Virus record (IMG/VR): IMGVR_UViG_3300006139_000005
Coordinates: 1 to 26,049 of that record
Length of the DNA stretch: 26,049 bases
Source of the DNA: a virus
Taxonomy: Duplodnaviria > Heunggongvirae > Uroviricota > Caudoviricetes
Reading direction: 5' to 3' (one strand)
The notes under the pieces were generated by a model. It was given only the letters and a program-made list of their open reading frames with translations, did not search any database and was not told the origin of the DNA. A program made the position numbers and the translations under genes. The first letter of the stretch is position 1. Each line of letters starts with the position of its first letter. Positions 14,850 through 19,209 of the stretch are shown piece by piece.

Positions 14850-14883
14850 ACAAAACCTCAGCGATTCTAAGCCGCTGAGGTTT
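14850..14883 (-). terminator. Intrinsic terminator closing the RNA island
   Basis: AAACCTCAGCG-9 nt loop-CGCTGAGGTTT followed by TG, ~20 nt downstream of the last tRNA. Confidence 0.75.
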
Positions 14884-14902
14884 CAGTCATTATGATATTT
14901 TG

Positions 14903-14978
14903 TGGTGCGCCAGAAGGGACTCGAACCCTCGACCTACCGCTTAAAAGGCGGTTATTCTACCAGCTGAATTACTGGCAC
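14903..14978 (-). tRNA. tRNA-Lys(UUU)
   Basis: Cloverleaf; anticodon arm ACCGC-CTTTTAA-GCGGT; CCA encoded. Confidence 0.95.
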
Positions 14979-14988
14979 ATATGTATAT

Positions 14989-15054
14989 GAGACACTACCT
15001 GGTTTGACAGTCAGGATTTGATTTTGAAGTCAAATAAATTGCTGTACGTGTCTC
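14989..15054 (-). ncRNA. Stem+ACAGCAA element, copy D (skipping-rope-like)
   Basis: GAGACAC-GTACAGCAAT...GTGTCTC; one of four copies. The family name is from recall and unverified. Confidence 0.55.
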
Positions 15055-15056
15055 AA

Positions 15057-15275
15057 GGTACACTTTCTCAGGCTCACAAAGTCCCGTTGCGGTATACAAG
15101 CGCCCCGCCTCCTGATCGGGTTGTCGTGTTGCTCTCCACGATGTCACAGTTACTATCGGTCTGTATTCCGTCCGACTTTCACGGAGGGGAGCGACCCCGC
15201 ATATTGTTGCTTACCCTTCCTCATATGTACTCCGGGCCAGAGCTGCGCGTTCTTTCGGGACTACGAGGATGTTCC
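15057..15275 (-). ncRNA. Unassigned structured RNA, ~220 nt
   Basis: Closing stem AGUCCCG/CGGGACU (15256-15262 with 15080-15086) and several internal hairpins; no credible ORF. Confidence 0.55.
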
Positions 15276-15276
15276 G

Positions 15277-15369
15277 TGGCGGCGGAAGTAGGACTCGAAC
15301 CCACAAGCCATTCATCACGGCCAACAGTTTTCAAGACTGCTCCCCGCACCTACTGGGGTCAATTCCGCC
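15277..15369 (-). tRNA. tRNA-Ser(UGA)
   Basis: GCAGT-CTTGAAA-ACTGT; long variable arm; G73; CCA encoded; atypical D-arm. Confidence 0.9.
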
Positions 15370-15372
15370 ATA

Positions 15373-15461
15373 TGGTAGGGGAGGTGGGAGTTGAACCCAC
15401 TCAGCGCATAAGCGCAACGATTTTACAGACCGCCCCGACTCTCCAACTTCGGCGCTCCCCT
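15373..15461 (-). tRNA. tRNA-Tyr(GUA)
   Basis: GCGGT-CTGTAAA-ATCGT; long variable arm; CCA encoded. Confidence 0.9.
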
Positions 15462-15473
15462 ATACGTATATTG

Positions 15474-15802
15474 TAAAAGTGACTCCGCTCCCAGCCTCAC
15501 CACACACCTTTACGCTGTGCCATATTGCCACCACAACTCAGCCTCATGTGCAAAGCCGTAGTCCTTTCAGCCTTTCTATCGAGGAGCAGGGGGATTAGTG
15601 TTTCCCGTCTTAGTCTACCAAGGATTTCGATGTAACAAGTACACCACACTTGCGGCTACGGCCCAGGCAGATTTCAGCCTACCTTTGGTGCTACAACGGC
15701 ACCTAACCGCTATTTCTTTTACGCCCAGTCACTCCATCATTGAAGGCCACCTTGGATTCCGTGCGCCACTCACACACGTGATATGTTATCTCAATCGGGC
15801 GA
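15474..15802 (-). ncRNA. Unassigned structured RNA, ~330 nt
   Basis: Long-range stems and many hairpins (see findings); GC-rich; no credible ORF. Confidence 0.55.
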
Positions 15803-15803
15803 T

Positions 15804-15879
15804 TGGAGCTGACACAGAGACTTGAACTCTGAACCTATTGCTTACGAGGCAACCGCTCTACCATTGGAGCTATGTCAGC
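15804..15879 (-). tRNA. tRNA-Thr(CGU)
   Basis: GTTGC-CTCGTAA-GCAAT; CCA encoded. Confidence 0.93.
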
Positions 15880-15882
15880 ATT

Positions 15883-15956
15883 TGGCAGGGGCTGAAAGAC
15901 TTGAACTCTCACCAACAGTTTTGGAGACTGTCATGCTACCATTACACCAAACCCCT
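15883..15956 (-). tRNA. tRNA-Trp(CCA)
   Basis: ACAGT-CTCCAAA-ACTGT; A1-U72 pair; G73; CCA encoded. Confidence 0.93.
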
Positions 15957-16120: not shown

Positions 16121-16357
16121 CTATTCATTCCACGGAATCAAATCATCAAGGTCAAGTGGAGAATTTGCTGTTGCAATCTTGATAAAACCATTCTCTGTAA
16201 CTTTCCAAAGAGTAAATTTCATCTTTTCTAAATTCTGACTAATCTGATAGTTCAGCCCATTCTTAGTTGTGCAGGACACACCTGGCCCATTTTCAGAAGA
16301 CGGAATCTTCTTTACAATCTTTTCAGATACATCTTTAACCACAGCAGACTTCCGCAC
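16121..16357 (-). CDS. Small hypothetical protein inside the tRNA array
   Basis: SD GAGGTG 9 nt before GTG at 16357; the ORF fills the gap between the two tRNA-Glu genes. Confidence 0.65.
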   Translation of the reverse strand: MRKSAVVKDVSEKIVKKIPSSENGPGVSCTTKNGLNYQISQNLEKMKFTLWKVTENGFIKIATANSPLDLDDLIPWNE

Positions 16358-16379
16358 CGTAAACAGCACCTCTTTTCAT

Positions 16380-16912: not shown

Positions 16913-16976
16913 GGGACACATTTTTGAGCTATCAATTAAAAGTTGATTTCATGTGTGAAGTTGCTGTTAGTGCCCC
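16913..16976 (-). ncRNA. Stem+ACAGCAA element, copy C (skipping-rope-like)
   Basis: GGGGCAC-TAACAGCAA...GTGTCCC. Confidence 0.55.
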
Positions 16977-17454: not shown

Positions 17455-17555
17455 GAGACGCATCAATGAAAAAAGTGAAAATAGGAAATGTCTGTGCAAG
17501 ACTAAAAAATTGTAAAATTTGATAGAATTGTTTTTGAAATTGCTGTTAGCGTCTC
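17455..17555 (-). ncRNA. Stem+ACAGCAA element, copy B (skipping-rope-like)
   Basis: GAGACGC-TAACAGCAAT...GCGTCTC enclosing a long AU-rich loop. Confidence 0.55.
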
Positions 17556-17558
17556 AAC

Positions 17559-17618
17559 GGGACACGTTTTCTTCTTTTACCCAAAAAAAGTTTTTGTTGA
17601 GATTGCTGTTAGTGTCCC
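17559..17618 (-). ncRNA. Stem+ACAGCAA element, copy A (skipping-rope-like)
   Basis: GGGACAC-TAACAGCAAT...GTGTCCC. Confidence 0.55.
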
Positions 17619-17699: not shown

Positions 17700-18116
17700 T
17701 GGTGGAGCCGGCGGGAATCGAACCCGCGTCCGAAATTCCTACATGAACAAGACCTTCTTACGCAATAGACGATTTTTCAGCGTTGCTTTTCAGCGGGCGC
17801 TTGCGATACCGTCAAATCTGTCCCAGGGCGCACAATGGTTTGCACACCTCCACCACCTTGTCTCTTTTAGCAGTAACAAGGAAAACTGCGCATTTGGACG
17901 TATCTTTACCTCATACATTCACCCGTCCAGTAGGTATGTCGTTTTGGAATCCTACCGTCAATCAGGCGGCAACCCTCTCAGCCACAAAAGCAGCAAAAGC
18001 GGGGTGGATCATTACAACAGTTTCAGAGTTGTCATTTCATTTTTTGTATGCCTTTAGGCGGTCATCTACCTGCGAGTCTTGCACTCTCAAAACCCCGTCG
18101 AATCCTTTACGGCCCC
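17700..18116 (-). ncRNA. ssrA: tmRNA
   Basis: 5' GGGGCCGTAAAGGATTCGAC; 3' T-arm GCGGG-TTCGATT-CCCGC then CGGCTCCACCA with G3:U70; internal tag frame ending GCC GCC TGA. Confidence 0.95.
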
Positions 18117-18434: not shown

Positions 18435-19051
18435 TTGAAGAACTTAATCTCTCAATCACACTTATTACTGGGTCTTCACCCTACCTCCATTATCTTCTTT
18501 GTTGTTCCGCCACCAGGGAGACAAGTCTGAGCTTTGGGGAGCGACCCCTAACTTCTTGCCCCAGCGCATCAGCGCCATATCCTGCACGGGATTGTCTACC
18601 CGCAAATTTCACCGTTCATTCAGAAAATTTCATTATTGACCTGTATAGTCTACATACTTTCAAAATGAAAAGATGTTTTCAATCTGTCCTACGGCTACTT
18701 TAACCAGCGACTTTCGTTATAGCCGAATTTCTTCGGCATCAAGACAGAAGCACATTATTGGTTTTACCTCCGTATAATCGGCTACCACCCCGATATACTG
18801 CAAGGCTTATTCTCCACATGGAGCGTCTATTGCTGCGCCCGAAAGTTCTGTGCGTTACAAAGCGACAACTCTTAGCGACATACGTTTTTCTTGGCGGTTT
18901 CCGCCTCCTCGCCCTGCATCGCTGCATGACGACGATCCTCCCTGCAAGGTATCCCTCGCAGTTCCTACCGAAATTACCATATGCCTCGGAGTGCTGACAC
19001 ACTTTGTTCACCGAGTTAGTAATAAGCATGATTCAAAGATTAAGTTTTCAA
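18435..19051 (-). ncRNA. Large structured RNA, GOLLD-like (ROOL is the alternative)
   Basis: The two ends pair over ~31 bp and there are many internal hairpins. The 3' half has motifs I recall from GOLLD (CUGAAUGAACGGUGAAA, GGGGUCGCUCCCC, CUCAGACUU, GGGUGAAGACCC). The setting in a phage tRNA array fits both families. Confidence 0.72.
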
Positions 19052-19133: not shown

Positions 19134-19159
19134 ATTGATTTTGTTCGTCGCTATGGTCA

Positions 19160-19188
19160 TACTATACCACAGGTTTCAGTGGATGTCA
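19160..19188 (-). promoter_or_regulatory. SigmaA-type promoter for the RNA island
   Basis: TTGACA-17 nt-TATAGT on the minus strand, with TG just upstream of the -10 box; ~26 nt before tRNA-Thr. Confidence 0.85.
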
Positions 19189-19209
19189 ATAGCGACGAAC
19201 AAAATTTTT

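Follow-up and report, generated by a model that had tools for sequence, protein, structure and literature searches.

An RNA gene within a phage tRNA operon

The window analyzed here, i.e., the whole stretch of 26,049 nucleotides, covers the initial 26 kb of a gut-phage record, 117 kb in length, in which terminase and portal genes are present. Its minus strand bears a 4.3-kb cluster of 19 tRNAs, a tmRNA, a ROOL RNA and a further structured RNA of 330 nt, which fills the gap between tRNA-Thr(CGU) and tRNA-Tyr. The first-pass annotation had assigned a non-coding RNA to 15474-15802 in this gap; the flanking tRNAs stand as it described them, and its 3′ limit needs correction, as 15474 cuts into the last helix, which runs to 15471. 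The principal features of the cluster are:

19161-19189, minus strand: putative operon promoter (TTGACA-17-TATAGT with an extended TG; 11 of 12 consensus positions matched; called by consensus match only)
18451-19039, minus strand: ROOL RNA of the same operon (Rfam RF03087, 381.9 bits)
17700-18116, minus strand: tmRNA of the same operon (Rfam RF00023, 92.7 bits)
15804-15879, minus strand: tRNA-Thr(CGU), the upstream neighbor, with its CCA end 3 nt ahead of the 330-nt RNA
15471-15800, minus strand: the 330-nt structured RNA (delimited by homolog alignment, pair counts and covariation scan)
15373-15461, minus strand: tRNA-Tyr(GUA), the downstream neighbor, starting 9 nt past the last helix of the 330-nt RNA
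14851-14885, minus strand: putative operon terminator with a 14-bp stem, after tRNA-Lys (consensus match only)

Positions within the RNA are numbered such that position p corresponds to window position 15803 - p. No genome searched, its own 117-kb record included, has more than one copy of the RNA, and a covariance model of the 3′ domain finds neither a second copy in the window nor a match within ROOL. Around the operon promoter, an inverted repeat at 19138-19205 encloses the promoter, and a gene for a 121-aa DNA-binding protein (PHROG 379) ends just upstream of it.

Homologs and sequence conservation

We gathered homologs through a neighboring protein and by scanning collections of viruses, genomes and metagenomes for motifs; chance matches to the exact patterns were numerous and were weeded out by a profile search. 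The resulting 99 full-length matches (some contigs counted twice) correspond to 62 distinct sequences with a median length of about 340 nt, the shortest natural members spanning 245-271 nt (L181, L208 and L143), and 31 representatives with less than 93% identity make up the structural alignment. They come from phages and prophage-like contigs, the named hosts being Oscillospiraceae, Lachnospiraceae and other Clostridia. A blastn search with the 330-nt RNA against 50,697 annotated phages returned no match, the 3′-domain covariance model had no match in a sample of 149 further genomes from the host class, and the exact 5′ motif occurs in four of 401 genomes, of which two are the known copies and two are unsupported by the 3′-domain model. 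Among the 336 positions of the alignment, 54 show no variation and 79 are conserved in 30 or more of the 31 representatives; the conserved unpaired ones are mostly A, as expected if such residues were to take part in tertiary packing.

Covariation and secondary structure

An unbiased test of every column pair against a tree-based null recovered 12 pairs at E<0.05, every one of which is Watson-Crick compatible. A 68-pair model is 97.7% paired across the 31 representatives, with slid controls at about 40%, and two-sided changes are seen at 41 of its 68 pairs vs 21.8 in shuffles; the shuffles take no account of relatedness, and the same sequences served to build the model, making the tree-based scan the stricter evidence. 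Judged by this covariation, the 330-nt RNA is a real structured RNA with a predicted architecture of four pseudoknots and optional peripheral hairpins, and the homolog and covariation analysis proposed as a check by the first-pass annotation has come out in its favor. Its proposed check by folding energy has not: single-sequence folding is no better than shuffles (MFE z = -0.50), perfect helices of at least 7 bp number two in the 330-nt RNA vs 1.8 expected in shuffles, and energy-based folding is without signal for this RNA and for most homologs. Since the four pseudoknots are invisible to the energy model, we regard this null result as uninformative and accept the RNA because the covariation outweighs it. 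The same energy result and a 75-codon plus-strand ORF (15598-15825) could be cited for a chance structure or a small protein gene; this reading is refuted by the two-sided changes and slid controls and by homologs whose length varies from 245 to 483 nt, in which indels occur freely and no reading frame is maintained, and its probability is negligible. The predicted helices are:

15723-15800, minus strand: 5′ domain, a junction closed by P1 (15800-15797 with 15726-15723; positions 3-6 with 77-80)
15796-15780, minus strand (positions 7-23): P1a, an almost invariant hairpin of the 5′ domain
15778-15760, minus strand (positions 25-43): P2 hairpin of the 5′ domain
15771-15765 with 15483-15477, minus strand: pseudoknot PK2, 7 bp formed by the P2 loop (100% paired in the 31 homologs; two-sided changes at four pairs)
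15755-15750 with 15623-15618, minus strand (positions 48-53 with 180-185): pseudoknot P3, 6 bp, crossing P1 (93% paired; four pairs with two-sided changes)
About 15748-15727, minus strand: P4, a variable hairpin of the 5′ domain
15710-15704 with 15658-15652, minus strand: stem of the P5 domain, which also holds P5a and the variable arm P5b (covariation scan, pair counts)
15703-15687, minus strand: P5a, a strongly covarying hairpin (stem 15703-15699 with 15691-15687)
15696-15692 with 15475-15471, minus strand: pseudoknot PK3, 5 bp between the P5a loop and the extreme 3′ end (99.4% paired; two-sided changes at four of five pairs)
15610-15609 with 15598-15597, minus strand (positions 193-194 with 205-206): PK4, 2 bp crossing P7, kept by all 62 sequences
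15606-15604 with 15592-15590, minus strand (positions 197-199 with 211-213): P7, 3 bp, likewise kept by all 62
15485-15589, minus strand: 3′ arm comprising P8, P9, P10 and P11 (covariation scan, pair counts)
15589-15582 with 15492-15485, minus strand: P8
15572-15569 with 15496-15493, minus strand: P9
About 15562-15530, minus strand: P10, an optional hairpin that about a third of the homologs lack
15519-15501, minus strand: P11 hairpin with an invariant UAAAGG

The motifs quoted in the first-pass annotation are all present where it placed them, and the homologs separate its pairings into conserved and unconserved ones. Its CGCCCG/UGGGCG stem is P1, whose 4-bp core is 96.8% paired across the 31 homologs and changes from C-G to U-A in eight of them; in the adjoining P1a, the pair A8-U22 becomes G-C in 11 of 31. 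Likewise, its GGUGC/GCACC hairpin is P5a. The AGUGACU/AGUCACU stem, suggested to cross P1, shows 58% pairing over the homologs, and its 3′ strand (15483-15477) goes to PK2 instead; the first-pass annotation was right in recognizing a long-range pseudoknot at the 3′ end and wrong in the partner, which is the P2 loop. The long-range stem GGCCGUAG/CUACGGCU is 39% paired, with its 3′ partner lying inside the optional P10 hairpin, leaving one of the three long-range stems put forward conserved and two not. GUUGUG/CACAGC fares no better at 43%, CACAGC being part of another, covarying hairpin, and AGGUAG/CUGCCU folds locally within a variable arm that is beyond the reach of the alignment.

The unpaired cases of P3 look like alignment slips in short divergent members. 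PK3 includes a pair (109-330) that is significant at E<0.05 in the tree-based scan, and the 3′ end is buried in two consecutive pseudoknots, PK2 and, directly thereafter, PK3. A variable hairpin separates the P5 domain from the small PK4/P7 knot (15590-15610), which surrounds a near-invariant GAAACA. Across the 62 distinct sequences, three different compensations occur at the first PK4 pair and one at P7; accordingly, PK4/P7 is likely the fourth knot, as judged from the alignment, and is weaker and less secure than the other three. In the 3′ arm, the top covarying pairs are 219-313, 220-312, 232-309, 285-301 and 286-300.

Comparison with known RNA families

Searches with Rfam 15 over 14850-15900 at E≤10 and across 18 homolog loci at E≤5 detected no match to ROOL (model threshold 99.1 bits, about 580 nt), and GOLLD and all other Rfam 15 families gave sub-threshold chance matches only at the window locus and the 18 homolog loci. 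This was a further check proposed by the first-pass annotation, and together with pattern tests it confirms the lack of RNase P, SRP, group I and group II hallmarks noted there. ROOL has been described near tRNAs in phages and prophages, with function unknown, and its authors warn that tRNA proximity may merely reflect co-transcription (PMC5737381). Both ROOL and GOLLD occur near phage tRNA islands (PMC5737381; 10.1101/2024.12.08.627333) and assemble as RNA-only nanocages by cryo-EM, and the functions of ornate RNAs are poorly understood (10.1101/2024.12.08.627333). The current family resembles them as an ornate multi-pseudoknot phage ncRNA near tRNAs and sometimes outside prophages, and in the window ROOL even shares its operon; a comparable location is seen in 12 of the 31 representatives, which is a matter of shared context and not of membership. 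In contrast, its median length falls short of the 581 nt of ROOL and the roughly 800 nt of GOLLD, and its sequence and topology are unrelated to theirs, with no model match either way.

Bacterial RNase P RNA is of similar size and also has a tRNA context, and in both RNAs a pseudoknot helix near the 3′ end is followed by one nucleotide and a terminal helix. However, the 330-nt RNA is without a 5′-3′ closing stem, GAGGAAAGUCC or a bulged U: an RNase P-like terminal P1 is absent, as the 3′ end pairs with two internal loops, and in PK2, which has no bulge, the U is paired and covaries and the adjacent G-C changes to U-A. None of the 62 sequences has CR-I and CR-V (P4 with its bulged U) by exact match, and the 11 CR-V look-alikes with one mismatch are scattered internally, with none at the 3′ end. 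The R/S elements of group I introns (forming P7 with its guanosine site, beside the 3′ strand of P3) are found in none of the 62 exactly and in one with a single mismatch, and an R-like stretch near 15617-15605 varies freely in the homologs. The domain 5 pattern of group II introns (AGC/CGC triad), including circularly permuted forms (PMC8637638), likewise has no match in the 62 sequences with up to one mismatch and none in Rfam, and neither type of intron is suggested by the setting, as the copies are always intergenic, with no gene interrupted, and the empty sites are AT-rich spacers. Consensus helix 8 of the bacterial SRP RNA is found in none of the 62, again with no Rfam match.

Theta ribozymes, which have a minimal HDV-like fold, provide a precedent for ribozymes beside phage tRNAs, and they recall the 330-nt RNA in being pseudoknotted, directly 3′ of a gut-phage tRNA and opened by a conserved G in the first helix (PMC10879173). 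They differ in having their cleavage site at the tRNA 3′ end (PMC10879173), and the RNAs of the current family are several times their size, with helices in a different order and, as a rule, no tRNA directly upstream. In line with this, a nested double pseudoknot of the HDV-like/theta type, with G1 at the tRNA 3′ end and a catalytic C in J4/2, is not found: the helix order differs, Rfam gives no match, and a tRNA lies upstream in a minority of the copies.

Phage T4 species 1 and 2 (rnaC and rnaD) are stable, dispensable non-tRNA species of about 120-140 nt, with function unknown, which are cut from the phage tRNA polycistron by tRNA processing. Compared by description only, they are similar to the current family in being dispensable non-tRNA RNAs of a phage tRNA polycistron and differ in size from its 245-483-nt, four-pseudoknot members. 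Of the candidate RNAs of Fremin et al. (PMC10690425, PMC8040213), the viral ones are 29-151 nt (PMC10690425) and might match at most fragments of the family; among the 408 files of the microbiome paper, the first 200 contain no match to the RNA motifs. Nor were the motif strings found in searchable papers, a scope outside which paywalled papers and theses fall. A conserved covarying family with no Rfam 15 match and with motifs absent from searchable papers agrees with the new large ncRNA class envisaged in the first-pass annotation, and we conclude from these comparisons that the family is uncatalogued, with a predicted new fold in the known ROOL/GOLLD niche.

Several short resemblances were considered and rejected. 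A 10-nt complementarity of the RNA 5′ end to the D arm of tRNA-Asp would arise about 0.5 times by chance, and this part of the RNA already forms a covarying hairpin of its own. In the look-alikes of a 12-nt 16S rRNA stretch, the group I R element, the 11-nt tetraloop receptor, kink-turns and, at the base of P5, the domain 5 triad, the required bases vary across the homologs.

Genomic context and distribution

In 12 of the 31 representatives, a tRNA is found no more than 300 nt away, and these copies occupy several distinct places in the arrays; 13 are near RNA-repair genes, and six have neither in their available flanks, several of these loci being short. The repair neighbors include a Pnkp-like kinase-phosphatase-ligase fusion, Rnl2-type ligases, RlaP, a CCA-adding enzyme and Thg1, and the gap between the end of the RNA and a following gene for the Pnkp-ligase, the Rnl2-type ligase or RlaP is 18-59 nt in three lineages or more. 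Assuming that repair genes are roughly 2-3% of genes and that there are about 12 independent placements, three such placements are unlikely to have arisen by chance (p near 0.003, a rough estimate). The context labels switch several times along the RNA tree, whose deep branches are poorly supported, and the gene downstream of the RNA varies between homologs. At locus L173, where the RNA adjoins ordinary bacterial genes, it ends 2 nt ahead of a 12-bp terminator, and the same hairpin is present in L183 and L192; the terminator right after the RNA of L173 therefore points to a stand-alone gene, contrary to a leader role.

The RNA is an accessory that phages can do without, and RNA ligase, Thg1 and ROOL are not obligate partners of it, because few relatives carry it, remnants are common, and ligases are as common without it. 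Specifically, two of 22 large records chosen by terminase similarity carry the RNA, with ROOL in 16 of the 22, and ROOL is found in only two of 14 records carrying the RNA; as many records are incomplete, absence counts are floors. RNA ligase is encoded in 17 of 20 related records without the RNA vs 11 of 14 with it, and Thg1 occurs in records of both kinds; in the 117-kb record, the 330-nt RNA is some 47 kb from the ligase gene and some 78 kb from the Thg1 gene. On these genome-level co-occurrence counts, we rejected an obligate partnership with any of the three. One phage lineage displays 20 deletion remnants of three kinds vs six intact copies. Three distinct internal deletions are discernible in L056, L061, L068, L158, L174 and others, two of them at 5-6-nt direct repeats; the seeming retention of the 5′ hairpin in the remnants is an artifact of the search pattern. 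Where relatives lack the RNA, the empty sites are plain AT-rich spacers, and the RNA always lies between genes.

Proposed role and alternatives

We tentatively posit, at somewhat less than even probability, that the 330-nt RNA is a stable trans-acting RNA cut from the tRNA transcript, contributing to tRNA upkeep as a decoy or scaffold that binds protein. It would be co-transcribed with the tRNA operon from the promoter predicted by consensus signals at 19189-19161 and be released by host RNase P and the 3′-trimming enzymes that mature both flanking tRNAs, as the distances of 3 and 9 nt to these tRNAs and the known course of tRNA processing suggest. The transcript would then adopt a compact core of four pseudoknots, to which peripheral hairpins may be added, as the covarying pairings predict. 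Its stability is suggested by the buried 3′ end, which, locked in two consecutive pseudoknots, should withstand exonucleases. By its gene context, it might bind proteins either as a decoy for host RNA-cutting defenses or as a scaffold for RNA-end enzymes, with the invariant P1a hairpin, GAAACA and UAAAGG as candidate binding surfaces. A role in the tRNA-supply and RNA-repair effort of the phage appears most likely, as guessed from context. The trans-acting role is favored by the conserved fold, the operon signals, the terminator-ended L173, the 12 of 31 representatives near a tRNA, the adjacency to repair genes, the invariant positions and the niche common with ROOL and GOLLD; against it are the lack of an obligate partner, the six of 31 with neither context, the dispensability of the RNA and the chance that tRNA proximity reflects co-transcription.

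Alternatively, and in keeping with the ribozyme option of the first-pass annotation, the RNA could be a new large ribozyme class that cleaves, ligates or processes the ends of tRNA or its own transcript, its invariant core being the active site and the neighboring Pnkp, ligase, RlaP, Thg1 and CCA enzymes handling its ends. Its size, conserved multi-pseudoknot core, variable peripheral insertions and 54 invariant positions fit published criteria for sophisticated biochemistry (PMC5737381), theta ribozymes supply the precedent beside phage tRNAs (PMC10879173), an invariant G opens P1 behind unconserved sequence, and RNA-end enzymes are repeatedly adjacent. However, known catalytic motifs are absent by Rfam and by pattern in the 62 sequences, an upstream tRNA, which most copies lack, is at no fixed distance and of no fixed kind, and genes are never interrupted, the empty sites being plain spacers. 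Moreover, the same ornate traits characterize ROOL, GOLLD, raiA and OLE, for which, to our knowledge, no catalysis has been shown. We therefore hold catalysis in general to be doubtful, and a more specific form, in which a new large ribozyme acting on RNA ends would cleave, join or circularize tRNA-operon transcripts alongside phage RNA-repair enzymes to counter host tRNA-cutting defenses, to be unlikely. A protein-free homo-oligomer, i.e., a cage or dimer akin to ROOL, GOLLD and OLE with the invariant A-rich loops as intermolecular contacts, strikes us as rather improbable, and would be compatible with the trans-acting decoy or scaffold. The operon and niche common with ROOL, the RNA-only nanocages of ROOL and GOLLD (10.1101/2024.12.08.627333) and the conserved unpaired A-rich segments argue for it, and some pseudoknot pairings could be intermolecular, a distinction that covariation cannot make; yet the RNA is about half the size of ROOL, shares no sequence or model similarity with it, and its alignment is without a conserved self-complementary loop.

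Placement 18-59 nt upstream of the starts of Pnkp-ligase, Rnl2 or RlaP in several lineages could also indicate a leader that regulates RNA-repair genes in cis, either riboswitch-like or by sensing a protein. This is very unlikely, as the RNA is followed by a tRNA in the window and in another 11 representatives, and by a non-overlapping terminator in L173, L183 and L192; in addition, the downstream genes vary, and a conserved switch pairing was not found in the homologs. Slimmer still is the case for a selfish or relic element, i.e., a non-autonomous mobile RNA of no benefit to the phage: its patchy distribution, several genomic positions and frequent deletion would fit, but there is a single copy per genome searched, with no ORF or flanking repeats, and the structure is under strong purifying selection.

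The family bears on why phage tRNA islands carry ornate RNAs such as ROOL, GOLLD and T4 species 1 and 2, and as a lead, its recurrence beside three kinds of RNA-repair enzyme is more specific than what ROOL and GOLLD provide. Few ncRNA classes of bacteria and phages measure 250-500 nt and hold several pseudoknots, and major ribozymes are among those that are well understood. The family is an accessory of a minority of phages, with a known range that is narrow and mainly in phages of Clostridia; it offers a covariation-backed model and a natural 245-nt minimal member small enough for direct catalysis screens, SHAPE and cryo-EM.

Other elements of the tRNA arrays and flanking regions

Within the tRNA cluster of the window, an 82-codon minus-strand ORF with no PHROG match lies between two tRNA-Glu genes (16121-16369), and repeated elements with a short stem and ACUAACAGCAA, none at the Rfam gathering score, occur between tRNAs at 16913-16976 and 17455-17618. 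A second ORF-free spacer on the minus strand, from tRNA-Ser to tRNA-Lys (14979-15276), holds another conserved RNA with no Rfam match, which has a short hairpin in common with the ROOL of the same window. It is cleanly missing in close relatives (L004), and its homologs in other phages sit between tRNA-Phe and tRNA-Lys.

Small ORFs resembling homing or restriction-type endonucleases are lodged between tRNA genes in L023 (599-1011 and 1183-2029), L024 (6860-7279) and L014 (6453-6889), one of those in L023 seemingly inserted in the second-spacer RNA. In L173 (1222-2650), L192 (1361-2900) and L183 (1272-1640), the minus strand has a 0.4-1.9-kb ORF-poor, GC-richer stretch upstream of the RNA, with four repeated extended -10 boxes (CATAAT with TG); it lies next to YitT and P-type ATPase genes and has no Rfam match, and is possibly a chromosomal island of several RNAs lacking Rfam matches. 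In L059 (3845-4130, minus strand), two copies of an element of roughly 58 nt precede the RNA, and related phages have the element at several places. Finally, the variable P4 arm of the L032 homolog has an inserted hairpin module (120-240), which also precedes the second-spacer RNA in L008 (7560-7650) and L014 (7566-7660) and suggests module exchange between RNAs of tRNA arrays.
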